A DNA stretch of 64,000 bases from Amoebophrya sp. A120 (taxonomy: Eukaryota > Protista > Dinoflagellata). This document shows, one piece after another, positions 1-58,392 of the stretch; the stretch's first letter is position 1, and every line of letters begins with the position of its first letter. The stretch lies in assembly GCA_905178155.1 (NCBI GenBank), contig CAJINV010000014.1, forward strand, positions 2,015,888 to 2,079,887, read 5' to 3'. The translations under genes were made by a program, and so were the position numbers. The notes beneath the pieces were generated by a model, which saw nothing but the letters and a program-made list of their open reading frames with translations, did not search any database and had not been told where the DNA came from.

Positions 1-3000
1 AGAGAAGTCCACTCCCTTGCTCAGCCTTGGTCGCTTCCGCCTTCATTTTTCGCTGTTCCTTGTACTGTTTTACGAGTTCCATCCGCTTGTCCTTCGGTAT
101 CTGAGTGACCCAATACTTTTCGAGTTCCTCTTTTCGTTTCTCCACCTCGTCGGTGGCAAGTTGACAGAATTTGTCGTTCTCCAACTCGTATGAACTGCAA
201 AAGTATCGTACTCGTACAAATGCATATACAAATTTATTTCTCAGCATCATCATCATCATCATCATCATCATCATTGAGAAATAAAATTTGTAATGCGGAT
301 TTACCTTAATAAGACAAAGATTTGTAATGTAAGACTTGCATTATATACGAATACGATACTTTTGCACAGGATAACTCGCGTCCGTTTTCGAAAGAGCAGA
401 CCTCTGCCCGCTTGTCGAGCCTCTCTTGCAAAGGAGCGACTCCTATCAAATGCAAAAATGTCTGGGTCTGGAAGAGTTGGAACCTGTGATGCAAACTCTG
501 GAACACGCAAAAACTTTTGTTGCGTGAGCGCCAAAAGCTGTCCATTTCTTGGTCCGCAAGTAGGAAGTTTCTGATGCGGGACAGGCATCATGAGGCGTGC
601 TCAAAACCTGTGATGCTTTTGCCTGCATCAGACGCCATTTGCGTGATCCGAAATATGCATGACAAATCTCGTAATCTTCCAGACCCAGACATTTTTGCAT
701 TTGATAACTCCTGACTCCGGTGCTCCCGGGTCGGCCTGTAGCCACTCTTCTGGCGGCCTCAAAGCCTCCGCTTCCAACGCGTCCATTTTCGCGCTACCAT
801 CCTCGGCGTTTTCAGAATTTATGCATTGCAATTATCATGTAGTTGTTACATGGGTGGTCTACAACTTTTAGAAGTCTATGTTGACATTCGCATTTTTGCA
901 ATAGAGTGGCCCGCCCTTGTTGTAAGTACGGTAGAACATCACCAGCATCAGAAGTTTCGCGGGCCGCCTATTCTTGCTGATTCATACCTGAAGGAGCGCG
1001 TGTATAATGACAAAGAAGTGCCATCAACCTCCGATATTAAAAGAATTCTTGATGGCCATGCATCAATTATCGCATCCATGCGTGACAGCTCTAGGTCTTG
1101 TTGTCCTTCAAATCTTGTCGCGTCACGAATTGTATTGTATCCAGACCCGGACGACAACTACATGTGTGCAATGCATAGCGTTGGGATCCTCGCCATTCAG
1201 GTGCTTCACGTCTTTCAGCGCTTTCTCCTCCCACTTCTCCATGATTTGTTGCGTCTCCAGCGCTATCCTGTGCAAAAGTATCGCACTCGTATATCATGCA
1301 GTCACGAATTACAAATCTTTCTCTTAAACTTAAGTTAAATCAGCATTACAAATTCTATCTCTCATGCTGAGGAAATTTCAATTTGTAATGCATTTATACG
1401 AGTACGACAATTTTGCAATTCATAAGCGCGACCGGGTCCATCACGGAATCTTGGGCGTAATAGGTCGACAGCAGCATGGGCAGTGCCTCCTTGGATTTTT
1501 CCTTGACCTGCTCTAACAGGTCGTCCTCCTGATCTCTTTCCCACCCCGTATCGTTAGAAAAAATCGGCCCTCCCCATATCGACAAGGCACACCTCAGAAA
1601 ATTTGTCATGGTGATTTGTAGCCACAAATCGCATCTGTGATGCAAGAAAGCAACGCCACAGGCTCCGCCCAATGGTGCAGGCGGTTTGTAATGCTGTTGG
1701 GCCTGCTACGGCATAGACGTTCCTCATGCTAAGTGCCTAGGCCAAAACCTCTCGACTCCGGCACGATATGGGCCTGCAGTCCTCTACTGCAAGACAAATC
1801 TGACTTGTGGACGCAAATCCGGCATCACAAATTTCGTTTCGATGTGGGGAGGGGGGATTTTTCCTTGTGATACCCCGCTTGCCAGAACCACGAGGCCCGG
1901 GTTTCCTCGGCGTCGATCGAGGCCAGCAGCTGCCGTTCCGAGGCCATCGCAATCTCCCCGGCACTATGAACTGCAAAAGTATCGTACTCGTATAAATGCA
2001 TTACAAATTTTCTCAGCATGAGAAATAAAATTTGTAATGCTGATTTGCCTTGACAAAGAAATTTGTAATGCAAGACCTGCATTTATACGAGTACGATACT
2101 TTTGCACAGCATAGGCACTTTGTCCCCGCCACTTCAGCAGCTGTCCAGTCAAGCGCGTGAGCGGGGACGTCATTGCGTTATGCTCCATGGTGAACTTCTT
2201 CCAGTCTTTATCACAGGAAAAAAAGTGCTAACGTTATACGGTTCTCCTAGGTTGCAAAAAAGCATGACAGATTTTGCCTAGGATGCATGCTACGCATGAC
2301 AAATTCTGGCACGTTTGGGGATGCATTTCTGCATCATAAATTCCGTTTTTAACGTTGTACACTTTTTCCTGTGATAGTCTTCCACCAGGACCCCGTCCTC
2401 GTCGATCAGCAGCTCCCCTCGTTCGTTGAGCCGCACGCGCGTGCCAATCTCCATTTCCTCCCCGTATCCAGGAAAAAACACCCATCCCCAGCCAATTTTT
2501 TGTGCAAAACATGCATAAGCTCCTGCAGGTTTTTTTTTTTTATGCAAAAAATGAATCATGGGGAAGATGGGTTTTTTTTCCTGGATACCCCGACGTACTG
2601 CCACATGCTTGTTTCGAAAGGCCCCCACCACACCTTTTGCCAGTTGTCATCGCTCTGTCAAATGTAAAAAAAGTGTCTGGGTCTCCTGGAAGAATGCAAC
2701 TTGTGATGCTGCATTTGGATTTCGAAAACAATCTGTATTGCGTGAGCGGCAAAGAGAATGCGATTTTTGCTACGCGGGGAGGGCATCTGTCATGCGGAAT
2801 AGGCATCAAGATGCCCTTAAAACGTCTGTGATGCTAGGGCATGCATATGCAGGCATCATGGGTCATACAAATTATGCATCACAAGTCTCAGAATCTTCCA
2901 GACCCAGACATTTTTGCACTTGATACGCTCTCCAGGGTGGCAATGTCCACCTTCGACAGGAGCCCCGGGCGTCTCCCGACCTTCCCTTCCTCGTCTATGG

Positions 3001-6000
3001 CGTTCTCAAATGTTAACAGATTCGCAGCTGTTACGTGATTTGTCACGCAATAAAACTCTCAGCAGTATCTACATTTTCAAGCTGCTTCGCATGACAAACT
3101 TCCAAAGAGGTAGACAGCATCTAAATTATCTGTGCCAGACTAACCTGCACTTAATGCGAAAGGCGCAAAAATCTTCCGCCGTGCTCTTGCACTTTTGCCA
3201 TTTTTGCATACTTATATACAAATTCATGTAACTACAGTTGAGGATGTAACGCTTGAGAACGCCATATCGTCCAGCTTCTCCTGCAACCGTGTGAAGTCGC
3301 TCGCCACCTTGTAGTGGTAGCCGGAGTAGTCCTCGTACCCCTCCACGCCGTGGCTCGCCATCTTATCGTCGAGGAGCTTCCCCTATCAAGTGCAAAAGTG
3401 TCTGGGTCTGGAAGAATGCAAGTTTGTCATGCTTGTCTCGCATGACTCTTAAATTTGTCATGCACATTACCCAAGACCCCCAGTTTTCTGTCATGCAGAA
3501 ACGCAGTTCGTCATGCAGAATAGGCAACATCAAGAAGCTCAGAAACTTGTCATGCTGAGACAGCACTTGCGGCCTCCTCATGATACGCCACCCAGCGTCA
3601 CAAGTTTCAAGACCCAGACTGCCATTTTTGCATTTGATATCCCCACTTGCTTGTAGTGCGCAATCTGCCGCTCCTGTTGTCGCAGCTTCAGCATTTCCTC
3701 CTCGGACAGGTTGCGACGTCGGTCGAAAGCCACTTGGTCAGCATCGCGCAGGTCGAGGGAAATCCGCTTGGCGCTGCCCCGGCTGATCAGCTTTTTGCTC
3801 GTCTTTTTTGGGTGCATATGGGGGCGTCAGGATCGAAATCGACAAAGTTGAAATAGTTTGTCAAGCACAAGAAAACGCAAGGCACGAACTGACTGTCTTG
3901 CAGGAATGCCAACAGACGAGGCCAACTGTAAGAGCCTGTTTGGGGTTTCAGATTCGATAGAGCTGCTGAAGTAGGATGACAAAAGCAGCTCTCTGTGCCT
4001 AAAGAGCATGACAAATTCGATTTCAATGCTGCCAAAATTCGTCACGCGCCACTTGAAAACTGAATTCCAATTGGTATCGATTTTATGATGGATTACAAAT
4101 CACATTTCAACTTTGTCAATTTCGAAGATCCTGACAGTTCCATAGTGCAGTACTTCCTTGTATTTCTTGCTGTACATCTTGTTTCCGAACCAGAACCAGG
4201 TATCCAGGAAAAAACACTCATCCCTATCGAATTTGTCATGCAAAACATGCATAAAATCCACTATTTGCCATGCAGAAAATGGATGGGGATGGGTGTTTTT
4301 TTCAGGATACCAAGCGCCACCGCCCACGAGCACGGACGCTGCGAGTTGCCGGGGGTCGTGGTAAAGCTGTGTCTGCTGCTCACCGATGGCCTGGACCGAG
4401 TCTCGCGCTGCTTCCATGTGCCCGAAGATTGTATCTTCCGGGTTCTCTCCTGCTTATGCATTGGAAATATGTCTGGGTCTGGAGGAATGCAAGCTTCTCA
4501 TGCTCGTCGTCACACATGATTATGATTCATCTCAAAAAATCTGCAATACACGTCGAGCAGGAAAGCAAAAGCCTCTTGCCTGTCATGCAAAAATGCAGTT
4601 AAATTATGCGAAAAAAAAAGCGAAGCACATTCATAGACGGAGCTCAAAAAATTGGCATGCGTAGCTCCGTTTTTTTCAGTGCGCTCACCAGTAATCCACT
4701 AGCATCGGAACAAGAAATTTCCAGACCCAGACATGATATTTCTCGCACTGCATACTGCTCCATGTCCATCTCCCGGGGATCCGATGGTGTGTTCGGCGTC
4801 GTGGACGTTCTATGAACTGCAAAAGTATCGCACTCGTATAAATGCATTACAAATTTCCCCAGCATGAGAAATTATGCGGATTTACCTGAAGAAAAAAATT
4901 TGTAATGCAAGACCAAGACTTGCATTTATACGAGTACGACACTTTTGCACAGGATACGTTCTGATAATCGTTGACGACCCTCTCGACAGCGTCATGCTTT
5001 TCATTCAACTTTTCGAAGTTGTCGTGGTCGATGCGTATCTTGTTGTCGTCGTGATGTCCCCCATTATTACCTCCTCCTGCGCTTTCGTCGGCGTCGGCGA
5101 CATGGTCTTTAATGTCATCCAGCAAGTCTTTATACTTGTTCGCCTGCGCGTCGAGATCGTCTTGCGACGGATTGTATCAAATGCAAAAATGTCTGGATCT
5201 GGATGAAGGTTGGAACTTGTGATGCTACAAAATCTGAATCATGCAAAAAGACAAATCTGTGTTGCAAGATTAGCAAATGCTGCCCAATTTTGATCAAGTT
5301 GCGAGGCAGTTTCTACTCATGCAGGATAGGCATGATAGTGATCTCACAGATGAATCTGTCATGCTAGGTCCTCCATGACAGATGAGATCGTATGCGTCAT
5401 GGAAAATAACCTGGATGACATAGTCTAGCAGCGTCTTTTGCTGTTCGTGCAATACAGATTTTTGTACCATCCAGATGCAGCATCACAAGTTGCATCCTTC
5501 CAGACCCAGACATTTTTGCAATGCATAGATTGGGATGTTGGTTCTCATCCACGGCGTCTTGGATTTCCGTCAACTGTGTCTGCCATCCTACTACCCGCTC
5601 GTGATCATCACTGTCACCTGCTGTCTGCCTCGCTAAGCCGTCTAAGATGTCCTTCATCGCATCGTGTCTGTCCGTCAAATCGTCGTGCGCGTCTATGGTG
5701 TGTTCCCTCTTAACTTCCGTGAGCACGTTATGGAGGCGCCAGGATTAAAATCGTCAAAGTTGAAATAGTTTGCGACGCATAAAATGCAACCCGCAAAGTG
5801 CCTGTCTTGCAGAGTAGGCAAGGGAGGCAGATCGCAAGCCTGTTGAGGGGTAGAAACTGAGCTGCTAAAGTAGCATGACAAAAGGCGGCTTCCTTACCCA
5901 AACAGCATTACAAACGGGATTTCGACTCTACCAAAATTTGTCACGCGCCACTTGAAAACTAGGCACCAACTGGCGCCCGTTTTAATTCTCCATTGCAAAT

Positions 6001-9000: not shown

Positions 9001-12000
9001 AAATTTGTCGTGCACAACCACCGCTCTTGCTATATTGCTGCTCATGCCGTACAAGAAATGAGGGGGAGGGGGAGTTGTGCACTCTCATAGTTCGTCCGTA
9101 TGGGGGTGGGCCTCCAGATCCAGGTACCCGCTCTCCTCCTCGCCAAGTTCCGTCTTCAGCCACTGACCCCAATGGCCATCGTGTTCTCGTATGAGAGTGC
9201 AAATACGACCCTAACCCCCCTCAATCCCCCCCTCGTCAATTTGAAAATACAAACTTCTCTCGCGAACAATCGACATCAGCGGGTCGCCGGAAGAAGGAGG
9301 AATGAAGATAATTCTCCAGGAACAAAAGTCCACCTCCACGACGACGATCATGTAGTTGAGACTGCAGCGCCTTTCGGCGTCATATGCATATGCATGCTGC
9401 AGGAGCTCCTGCGCAATCAAAATAGTGGTGCAATCACGACTACATCTACGCGGGGAAGGAGCCGCGTTCTGCTCGTTTTTTTGTAAAATGGCAAATGACC
9501 GCCACACGACCAGCGAAGTGGTGGAGAGAGAGTTTTCCGTATTGTGCTTTCTCATACCGTCGAGATCTTGCTTGATCTTTATGGCGTACTCAGAGGGAAC
9601 AGTCTACACTGGAACAAAAATGATGCAAAAAGCGGAAATATTTTCATGTTGTGAAAAAATCATCGAAATCAACAACGAGAACAAATGCAAAGTCTACCTC
9701 GACCTCCTACAGGTCTGCATGACAAATTTTGTGAGGATCATCTGAACGACGCGGTTATTTGGACGGTCGCAGATTTGATGTCATCCTAGACTCCATGTTG
9801 GTCGCGAGACAGATTGCCAACGTTTTAGCACCATCGCAAATTGTACGTAGATGTACTTAGTTCCACTCCAGATTATGTTCCACCTGAGCACGTCGTACAG
9901 CCGTTCGTGATGCTATTCCCTGAAAATTGAAAACCCCCATGATCCAATTTGTCGTGCACAGTACCCGCCTGTGGTCCACCACATCAAAAATGATCTTTGC
10001 ACTAGTACCACATCCAATTTATTGTTGAATGCAAATCGTGGAGAAGTAGTAGTAGGATGTGTTTTTGTCATCTTCATCATGCGGTGGAAAATGGATGATG
10101 ATGGTACAACATAATTTTCAGGGAATAGATGTCCTGAATGTTGTCGAGAAGTTCCTTGTTTTTCACCGCTCCGTGTATGATGTTGCCACTCCACTCCTTC
10201 GAATCTCCGTCGGGATTACTGGGATCAATATGGTCCAGTTTGTCCAGCGCCTCCTGGATCTTGTTGATCTCCTCATTGTCCTCTTGTGCATTGCAAAAGT
10301 ATCGTATGATCGCACTCGTTCTCGTATAGATTGCATTATAAATTTTGGCAATTTTGTAAAAATTATGCTGTTTTACTATTTATAGGAAGAAGATTTGTCA
10401 TGCATATTTGCAAGAGTCAGCACGACGAGTCAAATAGGTTTTGCAATGGATACCACGTGTTCTCGCTGGTCTAGACCCACTTCCGTGTTGTGGTCCTCCA
10501 GGGCTTGGATCAGGGTGTCATTATCAAATGCAAACATGTCTGGGTCTCTAATGCTAAAAATGAACGGTAGACGCACTGCACTGCGCAGCTATACATGACA
10601 AATTTTTTGGCTGCCATGTCTTACGTATTCCGCATGGCAAGCTGCGTTTTTGCATGACAGGTAAGAGGGCTTTTTCGTGCCTATGCAACACAGATTCTCG
10701 AGTCATGCCAGACAAGCATGACAAACTTGCACTCTTCCAGACCCAGACACTTTTGCATTTGATAGGCCTTCAGGTCTTGCAAGTCCTGTTTGGTGTGCCG
10801 CAGCGCATCCATGGCATCTGGCTGCTGTTATCGAAGAAAAAAAGTTCGTCACGATCACTTATGCGCATTCTTGCAATACAAAATTGTTTGTCATGCGTAA
10901 AAATGCATCACAGCCAAACTTCATTAGGGATTTCCCTAGTGTTTCTGCAATACAAGGAAAGTTTGTGACGCTGAGAAAATTTGTAATGCAAAGCCTGCAA
11001 GTTAGTGACTGTGACAAACTTTTTTCTCTCCATAACTGTTCCAAAGTATGCAGTACAATTTTTTTCCCGCTCATGTACAAAATGCATCACAAACTTCGCG
11101 GCCAACTTAGAGCATATTTTTTTATTACCACGCATTTGTCATGCTGAATAAGCTCCTACGCTAGTTTTGTCATGCGGAGCCAGCATTTGTACGCGTAGTA
11201 CGGGAATAGACTTACTGTGGATACAAAGTCAGGCCCTCCGCCTCACCGTGAAATAATAGCGGATTGGGCGCGTGGGTACCGTCTCCGTTCAAGTCCCAAA
11301 AGTGCGAACCCGGGTCGTGCACCAACCAGTCGTGCCAGTCTTCCTGATATCAAATGCAAATGTGTCTGGACGTCTGGAAACTTGTGATGCTGGCCGGCGA
11401 GACATGGAGACGCGACAAATGACGGGTCTTCAGCATGACAAGTTTCTGAGGTGCAAGGTGTTGTCTGACAGCATTCAGCATGACAAACTGCGTTTTTGAA
11501 TGACAAACAATTGGAACCTTTGGGCAATATCCTGCATGACAGATTCGGGAGTCATCATGCTAGCAGAGCAACACAAACTTGCACTTTACTTCCAGACCCA
11601 GACATATTTGCCATGCATAGCTGGTCCCACCCGTGTATGACGGCGTTGTTGGTCAAGTCCCGCTATCCTGTGCAAAAGTATCGCACTCGTATTGCAATCA
11701 TGATGCATTACAGATTTTTTTCTTCAGGGAAATCCGCATTACAAATTTTTTATTCCTCATGCTGAGGAAATCATTTGTCATGCATTTATACGAGTATGAA
11801 ACTTTTGCAGTTCATACTCCCAGCGCGTTATCAACTTCGAAGGTGTCCACGACATAGTTCACAAGCCGGTGTGTCATATGTAAAAACGTCCTCACATCCC
11901 CATAGCCAAGTTGGGAACCTAGCAAGACAAGTCAAGTCCACAAGTTTTGGGAGCCACGCATGAGAAGTTGCAGTCCGTAGTGTAGTGCATGTTTTTAGCA

Positions 12001-15000
12001 AGGACAACCGCATTTCAAATCCACCTGCTTATCCTGTTTACAGCATTACAAATTCCAAAACGCGGATGGAAATGCCTCCCATGGAGATGCGCATTACAAA
12101 TTTTCCTGATGAATCGCAAATCTGCATGACAACTATGGAGGGGTGGGGACGTTTTTACTCAGGATACCCTGCCCCATGTAGTCAAAGGGCTGGGTGTATC
12201 CTGTGCAAAAGTATCGTACTCGTACTAATTGCTTTTATGCATTACAAATCTTTTTCGAAAGACAATTCCGCATTACAAATTTAATTTGTAATGCTGAGGT
12301 AATTTGTATTGCAATTTATACTAGTACGATGCTTTTGCAGTTGATAGGGTGACCGTGTCCACCGTCCATTCCACAGTGTTCAGGCCGTAATTTGCTAGGT
12401 CCATCTGCGTATCCTGTGCAAAAGTAATATCGCACTCATACTAGTACAACTACTGATCATCGGAAGACTGCATGACAAATCTTTACCTGGATCTGCGTGA
12501 CAAACTGCTACTGCAACTCTCTTCTTAAGAAAATCCGTCATGCGAATCATACTACTGCGATATTAATACTTTTGCAATGCATACTGTGCGTCGTGTGTGT
12601 CCTCGTCTTTCACGAAATTGACGTACCCGAAGTCTCCGTCCCCAAAGTCAAAATCCCAGTCCTTGTCCCACTGGATGTCAAAGCCGAGTGCGCTTTCAAT
12701 AAGATTTGCCTATCCAGTGTAAATATGCCTGAGTCCTCTGAAACAATTCTGTCGTGACACTGACAGCTCAGCCTGATTGTGATTGACAACTAAATTTATA
12801 TTTATTGCAGCCCAGCATGATCCATCGATCATGAGAGCGAGGTTTTCCAACGCTCTTTCTGAAGACCACACGAGCAAGGATTACAAAATTTAAATTCCGC
12901 TTTTACAATTCAAAAACAGCGTCGCGTGTAGTATCAATCGCCACTCAGCATGTGCATGACGGATGATAGTACACGCGCTACTTCATTTGTTGATGTTGGC
13001 CACACAAGACCGATTCTACAGGGAAAAAAAACAAAGCGCGAAGCAAACATGGCAAGTGCTACTTCCCCGAACCCAGAGATTATATTCACGCTGGATATTG
13101 TATCCAGGAAAAAACATCACCCATCCCCATCCACTTTGTCATGCAAAACATGCACAAGCTGCGGTGTTTGTCATCCAAAAAATGGCTGGGGATGGGTGTT
13201 ATTTTTTCCTGGATATATTGCTGGTGCTTCGACGATGTCATATCAAACAAAAAAGTTGTGTTAACGTTCACGGTTTTCACAGAATGAAGTCACGCGTGAC
13301 AGATCTAGCCTAATCTGCATGCTATACATGACAAATGAATTTGGGCACGTTTTGTGGTCGTGCGTCATTGCATCACAAATTCCGCTAAGGTTAACACTTT
13401 TTCTGTGATATGTCATCGGCGGTGTCCACCAAGAAGTCGCGGCCCTGGGGAACGAGGTGTGATGCCTCGCCCCATGCACCGCCCAAATCGTGCTGTACAA
13501 AAAGTTCGTTTCCTACGTGTGGAAGCGCCAGGCTCGAAATCGACGAAAGTGAGACAACTTACAACGCATGCAGCCGCTACATACCGGTTGATCATGGGCG
13601 ATCACCTTGAACTTCAGCTTCTAAGCGTCGCAAAGCAATATTTTGGAAGCTCCTGAAAGAATCCGACTCACCGCAGTTGTGTTGGCGGCAAACGCGAATG
13701 CTTTTCTAGCGTTGGACCAGAAGTGTCCCTATTGCTACCTCTTGCGGATAGATGTGAAACAGGTGTGCAAACTTCTAAAACTGCATCGATCTGGCCGCGT
13801 TTTGGCACCGCGGTCCGCCTCCTCGGCGCTCTTTTTTTCTAGTCTTTGGTCTCGGGGTGCCGCGCTCGGTTTTTTTTAGCGGAGTCGCTCATGGCAGATT
13901 TTGCCGCAGCGCCGAAAATTATAAACATGGGGCGCCGGCCCTTTTTTCTATGAAAGCACGAGAGGCGAAGCGAGTAGGATAACCTTCTCCGCGCGCGCAG
14001 CGCGCGCGAAAATTTTGTTTCACCTCGCCCCCACTGACGCGGATTTTTTTTCTCTGGTTCCGCCCGGCGGCAGGCCGGCAGCAGCTGTGAGGCACCCGCG
14101 CGGCAGCTGTGCAACAGCCCGCGCAGCAGCCGGAATCAGGTGCGCAACAAGTGCGCAACAAGTGTGCAACAAGTGTGCAACAAGTGCGGATGGGTGTGAA
14201 ATAAGTCCGTTTTCTTTTAGAAAAAGACTTACTTCACACCTATCCGCACTTGTTGCGCACTTGTTGCGCACTTGTTGCACACTTATTGCGCACTTATTGC
14301 GCACTTATTTCACACCTCTCTCACACCTGTGTAACATTTGTCGCGAGCCTGCCCCCAACCGGCCTCACACCTGTCTCGCAGCCGTGCCGCAGGTCCCGCG
14401 CAGCGCACCCTGCGTTGGGGCCGGGCTGTTGCACGGCTGTCGCACAGCTGACCGCGAGGCCTCTCTTTTGCCGCCCGCGAAAAAGTTTGGGGGCCGGGGG
14501 CCTGGCTCTTGACCCGGGCCCGGTGAACCGGTCGGCCCGCGCTCGCCCTAGGCAACCCGAACGCGCGACGGCCCGCGACCACGGGTCTAGCCGACTACTT
14601 CTCGCCGCGTTGTGCATTGTGAAAACGCGACGGCCCATGCGGAACGGGCCACCCCTTTCGTCATGGAAGCTCCTGAAAGAATCCGACTCACCGCAGTTGT
14701 GTTGGCGGCAAACGCGATTGCTTTTCAAGTGCTTGTTTGCGGTAGTTCCTTCCACTTGCACTTCTAAACCTCGGCAAGCTAAGGCTTACTACAACAGCAG
14801 GCCTCGCTTGCCTACTCGCCAATACAGGAGGTTTGTGCTATTAAGCACGACTTTGATTTATTTTATGGGATGCAAAGCTCTTTCAATTTTGACGATTTCA
14901 AACCTGACGCTTCCATAAAACGGATACGGTACCCTGTGCAAACATTTCCACGGGTTTTGCAAGTTGCTCACCAACGTCAAGGACGTTCTCAAGGTTGTTC

Positions 15001-18000: not shown

Positions 18001-19590
18001 GTTTGTGCTTCCTGCTCGAAAATGGGCGGGTCTCTTGTCGCACATCAGTTCCTTCCACCAGCGAAAAGACAACAAACGTCTACGACGCGATGAAAGAAGA
18101 GTCCTCGTCGAAAAAGTAGTTGTAGTTTCTGCAGCCCGAGGATCGTCATCCTTGCTGCGAACAAAGGAACTGCGCATCATCATCAGGTGTCGCCGTAAAC
18201 AACTTGGCAAGCAGCAGCTTGTTGCGCGGCTTGCGGAAGCAGGTGCAACTTCTTCGGGCGGGACTTCATCTACACGGGGACGAGGCGACGTCACAGCACT
18301 CTTGGAGGAGCTCTTCTTTTTTTTCTTTTTCTTCTGTGAGTTACTGTGAGCTGCCTTCGTTTTTGTTACTCGAGTTACGGTGTCCGGCGGAATCATTGGT
18401 TCTCGATTGTACAACTGCAGCTCCCCCTGGCGCGGCTGGTCTTGCGTAGCAGAGGACTGGTAGCGGTCGACCTGGTGCTGCACCGCTGGACCTCCGCTTC
18501 TACTTGGATTTGGATTTGCAGCAGGGTGCTGTACTAGATCTGCAGCAGTACTATGGCGCTCTCAAGCGTTAGAATCAATGAAATGATCCCTGTAGAAGTT
18601 AGATGAAGATTTTGTATATGGTTCAAGAGTCGCAGACGCAAAAGCCTGGACCACGACCACTTTATCTTTAAATTCAATATATACGCTCGTTGCATTTATA
18701 CAAATGTGGTGGACGTAGAATCTTCAAGAAAAAATCGCACCTTGCATTTATGCAAAAAATCAAAAAAATACATAGCGATCGCGCAACGGCAATACATAGC
18801 GATCAGTCAGCACCAGTGTGTTAACGCTTGTGATGAGAACGCCATACACAGTACACGTCGAAGCGGAAACTTTTCCTCCGGCCACTTGGACATCATTTTT
18901 CGTCTCGTGACGGTACTCATCATGTTGTTGCAAGTGGATCGGAACCCTCTCCAAACTTGTACTGGATGTGCTGGAGTTGTTGTTCCTGTTCCTATTTTGA
19001 TTTTGTTGCACACTAACACTAGCCATGCCTGTCGCCCCTTGCTCCTTGTCAACGGTGGTGGTCTCGCGTGCAGCATCTCCTCCTGAACGAGCGGCCGAAA
19101 CGCCTTTGTTGCGATGATCTGCATGATCTGATGTGCAAACTACGGACTGCAGTGCGTCGTGTCGAGGCACGATCGTCGAGGAGATGTAGTTGGGCACCTC
19201 CTCCGACCTCCTGAAATTACCATGTTCTGCGCCCGGTCGTGCTGACAGGGCCGCAGTGGAGGCTGTCGCGCTCCTCGCGCTCGTCATCCTCTCTTCAGCT
19301 AGTGCAGCTGTTCGAGGACGTACTAGATCTCCATCTAATTCGGGCTCGGCGATCACAGCTGTCGCCTGAGCGGGGGCTAGCTGAATCGTGCTGCTGTTTG
19401 ATGTGCTCTTTCTTGTGGTCATTTCTGACTCGACGACAAGAACTTGATCCGTCATAATTCCTTTTCTCCCGCTTACAATCTTCTTGTGCACGTCCGATTC
19501 CATGATGGGTAGTCGTTCTCGCTCCCACTTCGGAAGATGTGCAGAGTTTCTGGCTTCTGCGACGTCCACCACTTCGCGAGGAAAGGCTGA
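1..19590 (-). CDS. Large multi-exon hypothetical protein (>2,200 aa in window; low-complexity N-terminal part, one predicted TM helix, long acidic/coiled-coil region); 46 introns; 3' end lies outside the window, 5' end uncertain
   Basis: Removing each TIR element plus one 5-bp repeat gives one stop-free frame by manual translation, e.g. ...SWWKVIVTL|YLVLITMFVLRRALK...PESGV|APLQERLDK...NGRE|LENDKFCQ.... No known domain recognised. Confidence 0.85.
189..373. mobile_element. Introner, family A (TATnnnnTGCAAAAGTATCGTACTCGTA)
   Basis: TIR; TSD ACTCG/ACTCG; internal (CAT)n expansion; removal restores frame. Confidence 0.95.
444..706. mobile_element. Introner, family B (TATCAAATGCAAAAATGTCTGGGTCTGGAAG)
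   Basis: About 30-bp perfect TIR; TSD ACTCC/ACTCC; frame restored. Confidence 0.95.
820..1177. mobile_element. Introner, decayed B-like
   Basis: TATGCATTGCA...TGCAATGCATA; repeat GCGTT at 806-810 and 1178-1182 (9-nt offset); frame restored. Confidence 0.8.
1264..1424. mobile_element. Introner, family A (opposite orientation)
   Basis: TATCCTGTGCAAAAG...TTTTGCAATTCATA; TSD AGCGC. Confidence 0.93.
1549..1872. mobile_element. Introner, family C
   Basis: Imperfect TIR (CCCTCCCCATATCGA/TCGATGTGGGGAGGG); TSD CCCCG. Confidence 0.88.
1965..2113. mobile_element. Introner, family A
   Basis: TIR; TSD GGCAC. Confidence 0.95.
2209..2376. mobile_element. Introner, family D (TATCACAGGAAAAAGTG..AACGTT)
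   Basis: TIR; TSD GTCTT. Confidence 0.93.
2465..2587. mobile_element. Introner, family E (TATCCAGGAAAAAACACCCATCCCC)
   Basis: TIR; TSD CCCCG. Confidence 0.93.
2656..2925. mobile_element. Introner, family B
   Basis: TGTCAAATG...CACTTGATA; TSD CGCTC. Confidence 0.92.
2996..3266. mobile_element. Introner, family F (TATGGCGTTCTCAA)
   Basis: 14-bp perfect TIR; TSD TCGTC. Confidence 0.92.
3384..3639. mobile_element. Introner, family B
   Basis: TIR; TSD TCCCC. Confidence 0.92.
3817..4144. mobile_element. Introner, family G (TATGG..GCGTCAGGATCGAAATCGACAAAGTTGAAAT)
   Basis: TIR; TSD GTGCA. Confidence 0.92.
4201..4309. mobile_element. Introner, family E
   Basis: TIR; TSD CCAGG/CCAAG. Confidence 0.9.
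4455..4754. mobile_element. Introner, family B
   Basis: TIR core ATGTCTGGGTCTGGA; TSD CTGCT. Confidence 0.9.
4811..4956. mobile_element. Introner, family A
   Basis: TIR; TSD CGTTC. Confidence 0.95.
5175..5527. mobile_element. Introner, family B
   Basis: TIR; TSD GATTG. Confidence 0.93.
5729..6039. mobile_element. Introner, family G
   Basis: TIR; TSD CACGT/CGCGT; interior similar to 3817-4144. Confidence 0.9.
6186..6466. mobile_element. Introner, family H (TATCCACAGTAAATTTCCCG)
   Basis: Imperfect TIR; TSD CAGCG; frame restored. Confidence 0.85.
6541..7117 (-). other. Non-canonical intron without recognisable TIR
   Basis: Flanked by direct repeat GCCCT; removal joins ...DMREG|AKIQAD... in frame. 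Confidence 0.7.
7191..7497. mobile_element. Introner, family B (diverged)
   Basis: TIR; TSD TGCTC/TGGTC. Confidence 0.88.
7565..7865. mobile_element. Introner, family B (diverged)
   Basis: Imperfect TIR; TSD TAGTC/TAGCT; frame restored. Confidence 0.82.
8136..8409. mobile_element. Introner, family B
   Basis: TIR; TSD TCATG. Confidence 0.92.
8868..9089. mobile_element. Introner, family I (TATGAGAGTGCACAACTCCCCCTCCCCCTC)
   Basis: TIR; TSD GTTCG. Confidence 0.93.
9190..9556. mobile_element. Introner, I-like (decayed)
   Basis: TATGAGAG...TTCTCATA; TSD decayed but removal of element plus 5 nt keeps frame. Confidence 0.78.
9580..9897. mobile_element. Introner, F-like (decayed)
   Basis: TATGGCGTACTCAG / CTGAGCACGTCGTA; no TSD match left, frame kept with +5 nt. 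Confidence 0.7.
9914..10127. mobile_element. Introner, family E2 (TATTCCCTGAAAATT)
   Basis: 15-bp perfect TIR; TSD GATGC/GATGT. Confidence 0.9.
10285..10452. mobile_element. Introner, A-like (decayed)
   Basis: TGTGCATTGCAAAA...TTTTGCAATGGATA; TSD CCTCT/CCACG; frame kept. Confidence 0.8.
10522..10764. mobile_element. Introner, family B
   Basis: TIR; TSD GTCAT/GGCCT; frame kept. Confidence 0.88.
10829..11034. mobile_element. Introner, family J
   Basis: AGAAAAAAAGTTCGTCAC / GTGACAAACTTTTTTCT; TSD GCTGT/ACTGT. Confidence 0.85.
11047..11223. mobile_element. Introner, family H
   Basis: End TTACTGTGGATA is the reverse complement of the 6186 start; TSD CAAAG. Confidence 0.85.
11348..11619. mobile_element. 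Introner, family B
   Basis: TIR; TSD CCTGA/GCTGG; frame kept. Confidence 0.87.
11664..11816. mobile_element. Introner, family A (opposite orientation)
   Basis: TIR; TSD CCCGC/CTCCC; frame kept. Confidence 0.88.
11872..12166. mobile_element. Introner, family K
   Basis: GTAAAAACGTCC / GGACGTTTTTAC; TSD CGGTG/CCCTG; frame kept. Confidence 0.82.
12197..12346. mobile_element. Introner, family A (opposite orientation)
   Basis: TIR; TSD GGGTG. Confidence 0.93.
12410..12583. mobile_element. Introner, A-like
   Basis: TIR; TSD CTGCG/CTGTG. Confidence 0.88.
12711..13097. mobile_element. Introner (TATCCAG...CTGGATA) whose right TSD is interrupted by a second element
   Basis: TIR; left TSD TTGCC, right TSD reconstructs to TTGCT after removing 13101-13215. 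Confidence 0.82.
13101..13215. mobile_element. Introner, family E, inserted across the end of the previous element
   Basis: TIR; TSD TATTG at 13096-13100 and 13216-13220. Confidence 0.92.
13241..13410. mobile_element. Introner, family D
   Basis: TIR; TSD TGTCA. Confidence 0.9.
13644..14729. repeat. About 66-bp direct repeat pair (13644-13709, 14664-14729) bracketing the insert
   Basis: TGGAAGCTCCTGAAAGAATCCGACTCACCGCAGTTGTGTTGGCGGCAAACGCGA... twice, 1020 bp apart, 2 mismatches. Confidence 0.93.
14138..14306. repeat. Long palindrome whose arms contain 11-bp tandem repeats
   Basis: (GTGYGCAACAA)x4...GCGGATGGGTGTGAAATAAGTC / GACTTACTTCACACCTATCCGC...(TTRTTGCRCAC)x5; centre near 14217. Confidence 0.93.
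15015..15223. mobile_element. Introner, family L (TATCCAAGAAAAAAAC)
   Basis: TIR; TSD TCTTT. Confidence 0.92.
15349..15434 (-). repeat. Coding 15-bp tandem repeat, (ARQET)n
   Basis: CTGCCTCGCTGTTTC units; ARQET is the frame continuous with the flanking exons. Confidence 0.85.
15471..15627. mobile_element. Introner, family A (opposite orientation)
   Basis: TIR; TSD GAAGG. Confidence 0.94.
15703..15967. mobile_element. Introner, family B
   Basis: TIR of more than 35 bp; TSD CTGCG. Confidence 0.95.
16458..16790. mobile_element. Introner, decayed
   Basis: TATGGTTGCG / CGCTGCCATA; TSD CCAAT/CCGAG; frame kept. Confidence 0.68.
16943..17132. mobile_element. Introner, D-like
   Basis: TATCACAGGAAAAAAC / GTTTTTTCCCTACGATA; TSD AGATC/CGATG; frame kept. 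Confidence 0.78.
17384..17643. mobile_element. Introner interrupting the TM-coding segment
   Basis: Imperfect TIR (TGTCTCAG/CTGAGACA); TSD CAAAG. Confidence 0.85.
18552..18846. mobile_element. Introner, family F
   Basis: TATGGCGCTCTCA / TGAGAACGCCATA; repeat AGTAC with 3-nt offset on the right. Confidence 0.85.
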
Positions 19591-26313: not shown

Positions 26314-26572
26314 TATGAGAGTACACACCTCCCCCACCTCCGCGCCTCTTCTGCCATGCAAGATACCAAATCCACATCTTCTTCTTTGTCTTGCCTGTAA
26401 AGAGACTGTCTGGTGCATGATAAATTTTGGAACTTCAAACAGTGCTAGTGCAATTTGTGTGCTGCACATTTGTCATGATGTGGAGACACGACATTTCTGC
26501 CGCTGCTTGTGTTGCTGCTGATGCCTGCTTCCAAATGGGGGGGACGGATGGGGGATATTGTGCAATCTCGTA
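26314..26572. mobile_element. Family I element (host context unclear)
   Basis: TATGAGAGTACAC.../...GTGCAATCTCGTA; TSD TTGAC/CGGAC. Confidence 0.7.
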
Positions 26573-39992: not shown

Positions 39993-42900
39993 TTAGTCAC
40001 AGCTCATGGACCTTCGCCCCCAGGTGCGGCGCGAGACTCTGGCGCTGGCACGTGCGGCGCTGGTGGCATGATTCTGGTCTTCGACATCTTCTACGTGAAC
40101 AGTAGCGGCTGCTGTTCCTCTTCCTTCTTCATGATGCGTGGAGCCGTCCGCAGTCGAAGCCTCGTCCAGCTGCAGTCCGCTCGAAGTCTTAATACTACTG
40201 CCGCACTGACGAGGAGGACGACCCTCCGGCTTTTGCTTTTCTCGGAGCTCCTGTTGCTCGTCGCTGTTCACAGAAGTGGCCACCATCAAATCTACTTCAT
40301 CCCTGCTTGCGTCAGAAATTCCTGCAGCTACACCGGTGCACTTTGCCGTGGTCAGCACCGTCCTGGAAGATGATGATGTTGTTGATGATGCGTGGGACTT
40401 TATTTCGTTTTGCGACATCAAATTCCCCGACGAGGACGACCCAGTTCCACAGGTGGCGGTTGTTTTGCGCAGATGGTGCGCTGCGGCTCCACTCGCTGCA
40501 TAATTGGTTGTAGAACTACTACTTCCACTCGTGCTGCAGGTGGAATTGGAGGTCGTCACGAAGCAGTCCCGTTGAATCGACCGCATCAACAGCTTTTCAG
40601 CTTTTCGCAGTCTTCTGAAGTACTTGCGCCGCTTGGTCAGCACCGGACTGGCCGACCGACTCTCGTTGCCCTTCATGCGCTTTAGCACGTTCTTGATCGC
40701 CAGAAAATCAAACACGTCCGTCATGTTACTGTAGTTGGTATCCAGTTTCGCAGACGCTTTTGCCCACCTCTCCTCCACCGACGCCACTCCTCCTGTGGAG
40801 ACGACAGGTCGTGGTCCCGCCGACGATGCAGCGGATAAGCTTTTCTTGTTTTGATCCTGGTGTTGAAGAAGATCCTGTATCCCGCGTTTCTCCTGCTCCT
40901 CGGCGGTAGTTGCTGCAAACGAGCTGGTATCCTGTGCAAAAGTATCGTACTCGTAGTCATTGCAAACATGCATTACAAATATCCATCCCAAGGCAAAACA
41001 GCATGACAAATTCCCTTTGTCATGCTGAGCTAATTTGTATTGCAATTTATACTAGTACGATGCTTCTGCAATTCATAGGTGGACCTTCCCGACGTCGACG
41101 TTCCACCGCCGCTACTGCGTCCGCTGATGTTCTTTGAGGTCGAGGACGGAAAAGCTGCAAATGATCCGGTTTCTGCTTTTGCCTTCTCCGACGTGTTCTG
41201 TTGCTGCTGCTCCAACGAAGACAAAAAATTGTACAGCGAAACGCGCTTCTTGTTCCTTTTTGCCTGTTGCAACTGCTTCTGTTTCAGAGCTTCCTGTCGC
41301 CGAAATTGCCGTGTGGCTGGACTTTCTTCGTTCTTCCGTCGTGTTGAGGTTGATTTCTTCTTTTTACTTCCTATTTTCATCCGGGAAGCAGGTTCTTCAT
41401 TCGGCGCGCGGGAATCCGTCTTGCTTGCGGCCGCAATGCTAGAAGTCATCAGGGCTCCTGTATTGCAGCTGCTCGTGTAGTCTACTGCGTCCTCATACGG
41501 AACCGCAGCTGCTTTTGTTTCGTCGCAGTCATTGGAGCTCTTCAAAACGTCGACTCTGGAGGCGGTGCAGGTCGACCCAGCAGGTCCAGAACTGTGGCCC
41601 CTCTGTCCAATACCGCTGGAGCGAAGATCCAGCTTGTGTGACGCGGTGGCACAACGCTCGACGAGAGCAGTGTCGACGCCTTTTTCATCAGTAGAAGTAA
41701 GAGTAGAGCCAGTACAATTATCCGGTCGTGCTGTTGAGCTGCGAGTGCCACTTTCTACTTGCAGCATCCTTTGCTGCTCGTCAGGGTCCACCATGGCATC
41801 TTCAAGTCCTTCGCTTTTTTTGCCCTCTCCCGCCCTGCAGGAGATAGACACGCCGGAAGACGAAGAGGATGATCCGCCACTGGAGATGGTGCTAGTATTC
41901 GTTTTCCCACTGCGCGCATCCTCCTCGTCGCTTTCCTCATCATCCCCGCCCGAACTGCTCGTCAGCTCGCATAGCCCCAGATCCTCGTAATACTGCAGGA
42001 ATGTCTTGGGAATTGCCTGTACGTGGCTACTATCCACTGCAAAAGCAACGCGGTCGCACTCATCACAATCATGCATGATGACAGATCTGCCTCCAAAACC
42101 TATACAAATTCTGCAGAAAAAACTGCAGCTTCATCTTGAAAAAAACTTGCCATGCTGCACTTAAGTCTAGTGGTGGTGCTGGTGGTACAGCGATGCAGCT
42201 CGTTTTGCAATGCGTAGCTGGGTCCAAAAGCCGCCCGCTTCGCGACCTTGCGTCGCTCCTGCTTGATGCGCTCCAGTTCGGCCTGGATCCGGGGATTCGG
42301 GCCCAAAAACTGTTCCTGTTTCTTGGACAAATTTTTCAAAAACGAGAACCGGTCGGATTCCAGAGATTTCGGATTTTTGATGATAACGCTTCTATTTTTA
42401 GACGAGGAAGAAGTACTGTCGTACGAAAGCACATTCGTTGTTCCTGCAGTAGCAGCACTGGAGGACGAAAAGCTGTTGCCGAGCCACTCCAGTCGGCGCT
42501 GCTTTACCAAGCCCTTGTTGCTAGTCTCCTCCAGGATAGTGGTGCGGCGGGCGCCAGCGATAGAAGCGGCATTGACGGCGGTCGACCGGCGCTGGCCATC
42601 GCAAGAAGACCAGGTAGACGATGTGATGCTGGTTGCCGAGTCTCCTTTTGGCAGCTTGAACTTAAAAAAGTTATCCCTGAGAAGCATCCGGCTTTTCCGA
42701 TTCAGCCGTTCCTGGAGTTGATGGTCTTGGCGCAATTCTTTGGCGCAGCTCGTCGTATTTGTCATGGTGTTGCGGTTGTTCGATGATGTGCCAGGACCAT
42801 CATTCGCGCTTTCGCGCCTGTCCGCGGCGGTGCCATCTTCGCCGAACGCTGGAGGGTTCGAATCTGAACAGAAATTCTGGAAGATATCGGGTACGTATAA

Positions 42901-54574: not shown

Positions 54575-57500
54575 TCACAGCTTGTGCGATTTGACGACGG
54601 TAGTGCGGATGCCGGTCATTTCGCCCGAGTAGAGATTCTCCGCGGTGCGCATGGTTTGCACGACGGTCTTCCGCTTCTTGACCGCCTTCTCGTACTTTCG
54701 GCGGTGCTTCACACGGCTGTTGCGGTCCTTCTTGGGCCGGATGCGCACCAGCCCCTTGTTCTGCAGAATCTTTTTTGTCGCGAACCGCTGCTCCCCGTCC
54801 TCTAGCTCCAGGTGCTGCTTCTGTCCCTCGGTCAAGCTACCAGGGTCCACCGCGGTCAACGCGGTCTTTTCCTTTGTGCCTTTGGCACCAAACCCTAACA
54901 CTTCTGACGTTGCCTTTTTCTTCCCGTGTTTTGTTTTCTTCAGCATCTCCTCCTCCTGCTGTTCCTTCGGATTGCTTCCGTGGTCCTCGCCCTCCTCGTC
55001 CGCGGCAAAGAAGTCCGCCGGAAGCGAGTCCTCAATGCGGACGTTTTTCGCACTCCGCTGCTTGAACTCCACCTGGGCGTCCCCCGTCTTCTGGCGCGAG
55101 CTCTTGGAGAGAGTCGCGCCGCTGGAGGTCGTCATGGTATCCGACAGCAACTTCTGCCCCTTGGTCATGTGGCTATCCTCACGAAATCTTGAAAGTGTTT
55201 GTCTTTTGCAGTCGGTTCGGTGCAATTGCATATTTTACCATAAAAGACTTTTATCTGTGTTGCATCTTTGTGATCAAGATTTGATCAATCATGGCCGTCG
55301 TGTTGCTATTATGCATATGCTTTATTTGCTTTTCCTTTATCCTTTGATACTCAGGATACCTACAACGCTTATGGTTATGTAGCATGAAATTCGCATGACG
55401 GAGACTTATTGTGGCGTCTAAAATTACATGCATGTGTCTAGAATCTATTGTTCTTTACGCGTCGCCGTCTCGTTCCTCTATTCAACACTGCAAGATTTCG
55501 CTTTGATATTACTGCTGCAGCTGCTTTTGTCCTTTCTTCTCGGGTCGCGCGCCCAGCGTCGCGTCGTGGTACGGACATTCCTTCTGCAGCGAAATCTGGT
55601 TGCGCGGCTTCGGTATCCTGTGGAAAAATCGCGATCGTGTCGTACCTACGACCACACAAGGAGAACGCGCCACAAATTGCGATCTGTAATTCAATCTTGT
55701 TTGTAGTGGACACAACATCGGTATTAGACACTCATAGTACAGACGTGTGGTTGCATGTTCTTCGTTGCTCTTGCAAATTATTTACAGCGCATGACACCAT
55801 GTATAGTTTCCCCACGTAGTTGAAGTTGCATTTGTAAACGACGCGCATGACAAATTTTATTGGCCGCGACGTCTATCTGTGCTGGAGGTGGAAGTTGGCA
55901 CTACGATTCAAACATATCAGTTTCCTTTGGATAGGTCTCACAGCACCATTGCCGTTCTTGTCCGCGCTCTTGACCTTCTTCCCCAGGGACGCGGCGCCAG
56001 TGTCCGCTGGTTCTGCTTTTCTCTTGCAGGAGGACACAGATTTATTCGCTTCACTTCCGCCAGCAGGCATTGTTGGATCTTCATTTGAAGCGGCCGCTAG
56101 TGCATTCTCTTCTGGAGTGACGGTGCTTCGTTCTTTCTTCGTCTTCACAGAGGTAGATCCGGTAGCTGCGTGCTTCTTCGAGCTGGTTGTCAACCTCGCG
56201 GTTCCCGCCTCGCTCGCGGAATCAATGCCATCAAGACCACCAAAAACATCTTCAGAGTGGTCACTTTCCTCCTCCTCATCCTCCGCGTCTGAGGAACCGT
56301 CCAGCTCGATGCTGTTCTCGCTCGCTTCTGCGTCCTCGTCCTCCGGGTCCACAGGTGCATGAAGATCCTGTTCTTCTTCATCTTCTGTTCCGCTTCCGCC
56401 CAGGCACTCCACCAACATGTCGTCCTTGTCCGCATACTCGACCTTCAGCTCCTTCAGGGCGAGGATCTGCTCGAAGACCGGGTGCTGGGTGATATACTTC
56501 TGCGTGCTCTCGAAAGGAGATAACTTGGAGGACGTTACTGGGTTCTTGTTTCCCGAAAGAGTCGCTGTGGTCCTGCTGCCCATGATGCCAGCCGCGGAGG
56601 GTGTGCTGCTCGAGCACAAACTCGACACTGTACCTGTTCAAGAATATTTGAAGATGGAACAATACAACTCTTCACAGTCGAAGCAGTAGCAGGATACTGC
56701 CCGCTACTTCTGGTCGGTACAGCACTTCTTCTACTACTACCCGCAAGAAATAATATCAAGTATCTCGGCGCAACATCTCACAGAATGAGTTTCCCTTCTC
56801 TTACTTTCATATACAATGATCTTCACAGCCTCTAGTTGTACTTACACATCTTCAAACACAGGTATGCTGTCGCGCAAAATATTTATAAATCGTCTACCTT
56901 TTTCCGCACCTTCCAGGACTTCGCAGACGCTGTCCTTTTTCAAGTGCAGGTAGAACGAGAGAAACGCCAAGTACTGCTTGGCAAACGAGCTTGTATCACA
57001 AGGCAAATTGGAACTGCGCTGCTTCTACAAGTGAATAGTGACACTAATCATGGTAGAGAAATTTGCTCACCCTCTTCTTCTTCTACACTTCATTAGCCGT
57101 TCTCTCTTCTTAATTTTCGCGAACCGACTGCACAGCTCGACCTTTTTTATTTATGTATATGTCTTTGCAGCACAGCCCCACTCCTTGTGTCCCTGTGATA
57201 GATTCTCGCGTCCACGAAAGTCTTCAGCTCCGGTCCCATGTCTTGCGCAAAGGCTTTGTCCGCTTCAAACCGGTCGCTGCACGGCAGCAGGTGCTGCTGC
57301 AGAAAGTTCATCTCCCCTACGTATTCCTGCAACAGTCCCTGCAGCTCCGGTGCGTTCTTGCTGAGCCAAAACTGCTTGTTCCGCGCAGTGATGGCGTTGC
57401 TTGCCGAACGGGTCGCCGTACATCTTTTGTTAGTAGTGCTCGCGGAGTCATTGTCATTGTTCTTGGGTTTATTTTTCTCTATTTGATTCTCTGCCGCGAC

Positions 57501-58392
57501 CACAAGAGAGCCTTCTTCTTGTTCGTTTTTACCTCCGCTGGGAGCTGCATTCATCTGGTCGTCCCTCGTTTGCGTCTGCGCGGTGGTGGTTGCATGTTCA
57601 GCAAGACGTGCTAGTCCGTCCGCATCTGCTGCTCTCAGGGGGCTTTGTTCTTCTTCTTTCCCCGCAGCGAAGTTTTTATTTTCGCAACTTCTGCGTGCAA
57701 GCAGAGACGATGACCCGTCGGTTGCAGCATCGTCAATACTTCTTAATAACTTACTTCGTGCAGCTTGTCCTCCTCCGACGGAATGAGAGGGCTGTTCGTC
57801 CGATTCCGAGCTGCTGCTGTCGTCTTCGTGAAACAAGTTTCTCGCTTGGGTGAGCAGTTTTTGCCGGTTCTCCTGAGCAAAAACGTCCCCGTACCGTAAC
57901 AAAGTAGATGCGGAGTTTCGCTTCATTCAGTAGACTATTCTTCGTTAGAAGTAGTCATGTCATGGTTGGAAGTAGTCATGGCTTGTTCTAGCTTCTATCG
58001 TGACATCATCAGAAAATGTCATTTTCCCAAATCGTGCTTAATAGCCCGTGACAAGGTTCAATTCTCGAAATATCTCGTCCAGTAAATAAAAACTAAGCAT
58101 CGATGACTTTCACTCTCATTGGGCCAGGCATGACAAGCGTCTCGTTTTCTGGGGAACAAGAATGCAAGTTTGCGCACAAAGTTGTTTTGGAATCGCGGGG
58201 ACGTTTTTGCACCGGGTACCGCTTCTCTGCCTTTTCCCGGAGCTCCTTTTCTGCGTCAGACAGATCCGCGGCCGATTCCGCATCGGAACCCCCGTAGTAT
58301 TCCGCTGCCTTCTTGCCCCAGAACACCTCCTTCTCCAGCGGAAACTGCTGCTCGCTTTCCGAGAAATCACCGGAATCTTCGGAATGAGACAT
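54575..58392 (-). CDS. UTP3: SAS10/UTP3 small-subunit processome component, multi-exon
   Basis: N-terminal WGKKAAEYYGG; central APELQGLL and HPVFEQILAL; C-terminal Sas10 domain RFATKKILQNKGLVRIRPKKDRNSRVKHRRKYEKA...YSGEMTGIRTTVVKSHKL. Confidence 0.92.
55174..55508. mobile_element. Decayed introner in UTP3, now bounded by GT-AG
   Basis: CGAAATCTTG..AGTGTT inverted pair with TAT/ATA ends; minus-strand GTAA at 55512 and AG at 55173; frame kept. Confidence 0.8.
55614..55933. mobile_element. Decayed introner in UTP3
   Basis: TATCC..GGAAA / TTTCC..GGATA ends; no TSD match; removal of element plus 5 nt keeps frame. Confidence 0.55.

Follow-up and report, generated by a model that had tools for sequence, protein, structure and literature searches.

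The introners of Amoebophrya sp. A120, short elements found as introns within its genes, have been described by Farhat et al. (2021, PMC7789003) as being about 240 nt long, lying in unidirectional gene blocks and having an inverted repeat (IR) that runs from TAT through seven variable bases into a run of A, direct repeats (DRs) of 3-5 nt (5 bp in the legend of Fig. S19) and 5' dinucleotides of the xT type (Table S4); both their mode of movement and the way in which they are spliced are treated there as open questions. Here and below, statements on published systems refer to the parts of the cited papers that were covered. The 64,000-nt stretch of A120 DNA analyzed in this work (contig CAJINV010000014.1, positions 2,015,888 to 2,079,887 of the forward strand; "the window") holds short elements that match the published introner type in their anatomy, agreeing in the IR pattern, direct repeats and xT donors: they start with TAT, end with ATA and are flanked by a 5-bp target site duplication (TSD) without base preference, which is the short direct repeat at the exon/intron boundary. 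The IR opens with TAT, seven variable nucleotides and at least three A (the A-run being weaker or absent in families 7, 8, 13 and 16), the element plus 5 nt is skipped in RNA contigs, and removal is non-canonical at 18 joints, while a GT-AG intron is skipped by the same contigs as well. The published text deals with terminal IR/DR motifs and a hairpin, and its covered parts hold no internal cross-family motif or spacing rule; the string "GCAT" has no match in the supplement text, although Figures S19, S24 and S25 could show the motif within example sequences. It is such a motif that we report here: a degenerate 10-bp site repeated inside the elements of all families, set in helical phase with the element ends, and probably bound as double-stranded DNA by one protein common to all of them.

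Several better-known systems resemble this arrangement in part. A Ginger-like family 38 of A120, with "5-bp TSD, TA/TA termini" and integrase-like homology, is present among 20 of the 58 A120 rows of Gozashti et al. (2025, PMC12130899), in the main text of which neither "subterminal" nor "binding site" has a match; the former is likewise without a match in the covered text of Bao et al. (2010, PMC2836005), according to whom Gingers end in TGTNR and mostly make 4-bp TSDs, and TDD-4/5 make 5-bp ones. The 5-bp TSD of the window elements fits the 4-5 bp of Ginger2/TDD, but their TAT...ATA ends are not TGTNR, and a Gypsy-integrase-like DDE transposase was not found in 150 of the 466 open reading frames (ORFs) from about 0.7 Mb. 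The ends bound by TnsB of Tn7 combine a short terminal sequence with weakly conserved internal 22-bp sites whose spacing matters and differs between the two ends (Kaczmarska et al. 2022, PMC9308760), which is akin to the terminal sequence plus spaced internal array seen here; Tn7, however, is bacterial and has one array per family for its own transposase, whereas the introner site is 10 bp long, is common to families with unrelated terminal inverted repeat (TIR) cores, occurs in mixed orientations and fills a 110-320 bp element. Emigrant/Lemi1, hAT and CACTA elements also carry internal repeats, in either orientation, that are bound cooperatively and whose arrangement affects the complex, and the repeats of Emigrant/Lemi1 are derived from their family's TIR, of which they repeat the 3' half (Loot et al. 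2006, PMC1636448); the introner motif, in contrast, crosses families, is not the family TIR core and follows a helical rule, of which the covered passages of that paper make no mention. Hence the elements, and spaced internal arrays in other transposons, were known, whereas the covered literature yielded no account of an internal motif that is helically phased and common to several families.

A scan for TIRs with TSDs yielded 516 elements, 34 of these in the window (reversed sequence, as a control of false calls, gave 2 in the window and 2 in 49 kb), which fell into 56 clusters, the 20 with at least three members being the families referred to below; profile searches extended this to 651 near-full-length copies, decayed ones included. 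The 133 comparison loci (634 kb non-overlapping) came from a TIR pattern search of a single assembly, JACKZZ01, which may not be the window's strain, and the pattern used has enriched them in families 0, 2 and 5; a search for loci orthologous to the window found none. RNA evidence consists of contigs from runs labelled "RNA?" aligned to the window, with no cover of 41.2-54 kb and with joints counted among those listed (15 of 66 in one listing), and exon/intron calls beyond these joints follow our own coding model. The raw RNA runs X9 and X10 barely cover the window. A single contig of 11,146 nt skips at least 14 elements, and another skips four elements and one GT-AG intron of the Sas10 gene; the skip at 189-373 measures 190 nt, the element plus 5. 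The joint 3855-4105 was discarded as stemming from an internal-deletion copy at another locus.

Exact matches to GCATNACAAA number 67 in the window (shuffle mean 1.01, maximum 4), 33 on the plus and 34 on the minus strand, in line with the original prediction of a motif used in both orientations; 65 lie inside sequence homologous to the element families, which makes up 13.4 kb of the 64 kb, and the other two (9717 and 55845) are inside introns without a family match. Expectation-maximisation gives the motif as GCA[T/A][G/C/T]ACA[A/G][A/G] with weak T-rich flanks, and position 5 avoids A (G 486, T 216, C 176 and A 9 among 887 exact matches). With a strong site defined by a position weight matrix (PWM) score of at least 12, the motif is found in all 20 families, which carry about a dozen TIR cores, and in 513 of the 516 elements, the exact 10-mer being present in only 391 of them. 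That the motif would occur in nearly every element, several times in each, thus stands for its degenerate form (strong sites in 54 of the 57 near-full-length window copies, 4-6 per young copy) and not for the exact 10-mer, of which 16 of these copies have none, 23 one, 12 two and 6 three. Its rarity in exons, noted in the original prediction, was borne out (0.07 strong sites per kb over 167 kb); element introns have 14.3/kb (with a site in 81 of 83) and predicted introns without a family match 1.08/kb (in 8 of 51 introns; shuffles 0.23); the 9.9 kb of intergenic DNA in the window has no strong site.

The core bases of the motif are 3-4 times more conserved than their neighbours in all divergence bins, and it is the repeated internal sites that are conserved in this way, which, together with the fixed helical spacing described below, speaks for the shared protein-binding site that had been proposed, as far as sequence can tell. 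The sites are neither confined to the ends nor derived from the TIR; they are spread over the whole element and are distinct from the TIR core of the family. In the family consensuses, about a dozen types of TIR segment 16-29 occur that have no relation to one another, so that the shared site does not simply repeat the TIR of each family. Some families have TIR cores in common (0/2/5; 4/12) and are hence not independent. Many of the TIR 16-29 types consist of two tandem 5-7-mers, which suggests family-specific binders beside the shared site.

The spacing of the sites is constrained, as in a subterminal binding array. Same-orientation pairs 31-33 bp apart make up 26 of 96 in the family consensuses (null mean 3.8, maximum 13 in 5000) and occur in 16 of the 20 families, and the 36 small or singleton clusters add 17 direct pairs at 30-33 bp; the mean direct spacing of 31.8 equals 3 x 10.6, convergent pairs peak at 33 and divergent ones at 46-50, and the spacers themselves bear hardly any resemblance from one family to the next (identity 0.30 vs 0.24 shuffled). 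At 25 of 40 ends the first site reads TTTGT inward and starts 31-33, 39-43 or 52-54 bp from the terminus; these 25 offsets fit 10.44 bp per step with an intercept near 0 (the step classes being analyst-assigned), and their end-phase (R=0.82) was matched by 0 of 20,000 uniform draws, which also holds after collapsing by TIR type to 15 values (R=0.87, 0 of 20,000). Checking positions relative to the ends, as the original prediction had suggested, thus shows a phasing at about 31/42/53 for the TTTGT-first sites, a geometry that it had missed; the 13 ends where GCAT comes first are not clearly phased. In inserted copies, changes of spacer length are no rarer in 31-33 spacers than elsewhere (0.127 vs 0.113 per 10 nt).

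The transcript strand was called for 499 of the 651 copies (within the window 45 of 47 came out as the expected minus, the model being partly trained there). In families 3, 5 and 11 all strong sites have one orientation, yet their elements were inserted with and against transcription 23:21, 9:11 and 6:5 times, and strong sites in element introns as a whole are split 154 vs 149 by transcript strand, not the fixed strand that a single-stranded splicing signal should keep. Facing terminal sites do not covary either (agreement at position 5 observed 81 times, expected 78, n=195), and these two observations together make a single-stranded or pairing-based RNA signal unlikely. One-way families sitting in both transcript orientations and the helical spacing point instead to a protein site on double-stranded DNA, and our preferred reading, which we consider probable, is that the motif array is the binding site of one protein common to all families and needed to build the transposition complex. 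This protein would bind the array in phase with the terminus, presumably on that face of the helix from which the terminus is held, and would be required for mobilisation; with TIR 16-29 varying while the site is constant, it may belong to an integrase-like transposase as a conserved domain, or else be a cofactor from the host that serves several transposases. Selection for mobility would maintain the array in active templates, the array would erode after insertion, and the splice cuts would be set mainly by the termini. As a separate observation, families 1, 2, 4 and 6 show orientation skews relative to transcription (49:33, 43:25, 24:12 and 6:15) that do not follow the motif strand.

How the sites age is informative in this respect. 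The core does diverge less than its surroundings (0.04-0.12 where neighbours are at 0.08-0.40), as a preserved motif should, but this contrast is confounded by neighbour divergence that predates insertion: TSD mismatch, which is zero at insertion, follows the core and not the neighbours, so much of the latter must be older than the insertions. Set against neutral on the TSD clock, degenerate motif positions have gained divergence at a ratio of 1.14, TIR 16-29 at 0.80 and TAT at 0.27. The oldest 42 copies (TSD mismatch 0.26) keep 0.35±0.04 of their sites, i.e., have lost about 65%, where neutral simulations retain 0.47 at d=0.10, 0.32 at 0.15 and 0.24 at 0.18; intermediate age bins retain somewhat more than expected (0.46, 0.67), and site decay is thus neutral to mildly slowed. 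The four decayed introns singled out in the original prediction match its description only in part: the sites at 44134 and 55845 are exact and those at 43013 (GCGTGACAAA) and 58128 (GCATGACAAG) have one mismatch each, each being the only strong site left in its intron vs the 4-6 of young copies, and the motif has not outlived the element ends, since 44036-44239 and 57871-58217 still match family models and 55610-55934 keeps TAT/ATA.

What directs splicing seems to lie elsewhere. All 18 RNA-supported non-canonical joints fit N/TA...A..NNNN/ (slashes marking the cuts), starting 1 nt before TA(T) and ending 4 nt after A(T)A, which agrees with the xT donors of Table S4 of Farhat et al. (PMC7789003); the joint of 55610-55934 is unambiguous (C/TAT...ATA+CCGA). 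Divergence at terminal positions 1-2 is lower at the 5' end than at the 3' end (0.012 vs 0.033), while position 3, the A at -7, is the better preserved one at the 3' end (0.014 vs 0.045). The conservation of +2U, +3A and -7A follows the polarity of the transcript, and the -7 A could serve, in place of AG, as a branch point at a fixed distance. TSD bases have not drifted toward GT/AG. We infer that splicing is directed mainly by the termini. The internal motif is likely not its core signal, contrary to the splicing role that the original prediction had favoured: it is strand-indifferent and without pairing covariation, decays near-neutrally on the TSD clock, and is not present in all introns of the class, strong sites being absent from 3 of the 18 RNA-supported non-canonical introns (2465-2587, with none of at least 8, 55170-55509 and 56990-57201) and from the first 120 nt of 41 of the 49 GT-start introns without a family match. 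Among GGTA introns, a start with GTAT is more frequent than any other (27 of 49), which hints that some canonical, GT-start introns may be aged introners.

Could the motif still act as RNA, as a branch-point-like UnAC or as a stem element pairing with its reverse complement? T-N-A-C within the motif does resemble the branch-point consensus, and in predicted folds a larger share of motif bases is paired (0.74 vs 0.61), 306 of 832 sites having another site as their partner, but families of one orientation are spliced both ways, leaving half of the insertions without a sense copy, facing sites do not covary, and the spacing mode of 31-32 is closer to B-DNA than to the 33 of A-form RNA, which makes such a signal highly improbable. 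Just as improbable is a functionless relic of one ancestral element end or of 31-32 bp tandem duplications, for which the TIR cores common to some families and the slight excess of spacer identity over shuffles might be cited: the selective conservation of the core largely refutes it, and so do the avoidance of A at position 5, spacers that keep their length and not their sequence, and sites in new orientations and orders in different families. A chromatin signal (positioning a nucleosome or viral-type nucleoprotein, or binding a silencing or anti-silencing factor) that would aid element survival or accessibility rather than catalysis is very unlikely, if a little less so; helical phasing and strand indifference would suit any protein that binds or wraps double-stranded DNA, and the lengths of the families form a weak ladder of 51 bp (p about 0.02), but this ladder was not replicated in 25 singletons, the motif is absent from intergenic DNA and nearly so from exons, and a phase fixed to the element terminus is more simply explained by a terminus-bound complex.

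More deserving of attention, although still unlikely, is a co-option for splicing, in which a host protein on the intron DNA or nascent RNA near the 5' end would help to define the non-canonical 5' splice site, possibly beside a role in mobility. The 5'-most core diverges less than the 3'-most (0.033, 94/2841, vs 0.051, 143/2829; within-family permutation p=0.0013), and in the oldest third the values are 0.046 and 0.080, with 0.091 for inner sites; a TTTGT reading on the RNA goes with slightly higher site scores (p=0.033); within the first 120 nt of 8 of the 49 GT-start introns without a family match there are 11 strong sites (shuffles 0.75), of which 9 are TTTGT-sense and some form pairs 32-33 bp apart (the TIR-less predicted introns L004:2216-2335, L032:2352-2476 and L004:370-480); the sole TAT element devoid of the motif, at 21762-22888, lies in a predicted canonical intron; and U1 small nuclear RNA (snRNA) was not detected in A25/A120 by Farhat et al. 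(PMC7789003). Against this, the 5' advantage is regional, being seen, if less strongly, in non-motif bases within 60 nt of the ends as well (0.093 vs 0.109, p=0.007), about 15 splicing-linked contrasts of this sort were run, outright loss of the 5'-most and 3'-most sites is similar (60 vs 70 of 487 exon copies, p=0.37), sites of either strand survive alike in old copies (41/112 vs 44/117), the core has diverged to the same degree whether its context is coding or non-coding (0.048 vs 0.049, with only 27 non-coding copies), and introns without a strong site are spliced. Coding/non-coding contrasts for TAT and TIR were rejected as biased, since misaligned ends break the reading frame. The 5'-most site may still have a secondary, weak splicing-linked role. 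A wider scheme, in which one host protein reads a helically phased DNA code in all introner families and licenses transposition, then, bound near the 5' end during transcription, helps the spliceosome to find non-GT sites instead of U1 snRNA, such a DNA-level mark letting code-bearing elements become introns in either orientation, is quite unlikely.

Several results sit uneasily with a protein site that serves mobility and merely erodes after insertion. Core divergence added on the TSD clock is 0.55 of neutral (95% confidence interval 0.36-0.82; confounded by pre-insertion divergence), and at a matched model score old copies retain about 3 times the sites of neutral simulations (confounded by subfamily divergence, and superseded by the TSD calibration); in both cases, selection acting after insertion may be the cause. 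Complete loss of sites is seen in only 4 of 487 exon copies, and the lower divergence of the 5'-most core counts the same way, as do, on the side of geometry, site orientations that are not fixed toward the nearest end and the GCAT-first offsets. A Pfam scan of 150 of the 466 long ORFs (about 0.7 Mb) found no transposase or integrase, no element with an internal coding ORF was identified in the element set, and Farhat et al. (PMC7789003) report none for A120. The element at 21762-22888 has TAT and a 5-bp TSD but no site at all, so that for some such elements movement did not depend on the motif (n=1).

If one protein does read the array, a defined 10-bp site with a 31-32 bp, end-phased geometry offers a concrete bait, with a half-turn shift as its control, for the missing mobilising or splicing factor, which is the main value of these data; by the same token, a single factor would be behind tens of thousands of "unrelated" introners. 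With the terminal rule, in turn, the likely splice signal can be told apart from the internal array, which would make the annotation of genes in this lineage more precise. The features of the window are collected below.

Table. Introners, older introns and motif sites of the window (site positions are followed by their strand; numbers in parentheses after sites are distances in bp).
Feature	Coordinates	Strand	Motif sites	Remarks
Family-1 introner, TAT..ATA, TSD ACTCG	189..373		strong site 287-	RNA skip
Family-0 introner	444..706		483-, 568-, 607-, 657+	
Old non-canonical intron without family match	816..1178	-	one strong site 945+	TAT/ATA ends kept
Family-1 introner	1264..1424		1343+, 1358-, 1382-	orientation opposite to 189-373
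Family-4 introner	1549..1872		1602-, 1634- (32), 1685-, 1789+, 1822+ (33)	
Family-1 introner	1965..2113		1998+, 2016+, 2031-, 2062- (31)	
Family-18 introner	2209..2376		2262+, 2294+ (32), 2331+	
Family-11 introner	2465..2587		none >=8	good TIR and TSD; still skipped in RNA contigs
Family-0 introner	2656..2925		2700-, 2732-, 2786-, 2825-, 2876+	
Family-8 introner	2996..3266		3089+	
Family-2 introner	3384..3639		3423-, 3454- (31), 3487- (33), 3507-, 3546-, 3595+	
Six introners	3817-4144, 4201-4309, 4455-4754, 4811-4956, 5175-5527, 5729-6039		include 4232-/4264-, 5449+/5480+, 5873+/5905+	
Seven copies	6287-6465, 7191-7497, 7565-7865, 8136-8409, 8868-9089, 9914-10127, 10285-10452		orphan site 9717+ in addition	
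Ten introners	10522-10764, 10829-11034, 11047-11223, 11348-11619, 11664-11816, 11872-12166, 12197-12346, 12410-12583, 13101-13215, 13241-13410			
Pairs 31 apart	within 10522..13410		10685/10716, 11135/11166, 11705/11736, 12239/12270	
Five introners	15015-15223, 15471-15627, 15703-15967, 16458-16790, 17384-17643		pairs 15045/15076, 15741/15772 (31)	
Predicted old intron	18552..18849	-	none >=9	family-8-like TIR visible; splicing inferred from flanking ORFs
Thirteen copies	26314-26572, 27393-27656, 28991-29300, 29370-29607, 30849-30958, 31043-31201, 32593-32753, 32925-33087, 34206-34345, 34407-34610, 34660-34773, 34849-35153, 35371-35626			
Site pairs	within 26314..35626		29219/29250, 32643/32675, 34691/34723, 35411/35442	
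Family-1 introner	40928..41077		40970+, 41001+ (31), 41016-, 41034-	
Decayed copies	42031-42216, about 42900-43250, 44036-44239, 46817-46925		42146-, 43013+, 44134-, 46877+, respectively	0-1 strong site each
Decayed copies	47004-47263, 47321-47488, 47674-47889		47138+, 47431-, none, respectively	0-1 strong site each
Old non-canonical intron of Sas10 gene	55170..55509	-	best site 11.4	RNA-supported
Old intron	55610..55934	-	one site 55845+	RNA-supported, unambiguous ends
Canonical GT-AG intron (control)	56634..56897	-	none >=8	RNA-supported
Old non-canonical intron	56990..57201	-	best site 8.6	RNA-supported; TAT/ATA ends kept
Decayed family-3-like intron	57865..58219	-	one site 58128+	RNA-supported

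Some further structures were noted along the way. Long TAT/TSD pairs were found six times, two of them (L048 and L040) with weak TIR scores and one being the motif-less element at 21762-22888; three others were rejected as long elements, being neighbouring elements or elements with insertions instead. The motif-less one is a TAT...ATA element with the TSD ATTAT and a 48-nt TIR, holds a nested element with 70-nt inverted arms (21892-22758), sits in a predicted GT-AG intron of an L24e-family gene and has no homologue in the comparison loci. In viral contigs, the TIR pattern had no match, and 33 matches of the motif-pair pattern were set aside as apparently unrelated repeats, with no full element match. 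The stretch at 62050-64000 is GC-rich, repetitive and non-coding, has neither the motif nor a homologue in the loci, and is possibly another mobile element. At 13644-14729, a 66-nt direct repeat, its copies 1020 apart, surrounds 11-nt tandem repeats that form a 73-nt palindrome (14140-14293), the whole structure being apparently inserted in a split family-13 element, and in the family-11 copy at 34206-34345 a 30-bp internal tandem duplication doubles a motif site (34237, 34267). Lastly, run X9, which otherwise has no cover of the window, contains about 160 reads of a relative of the element end at 15703-15787 and, since these carry different flanks, they appear to represent an unspliced copy at another locus.

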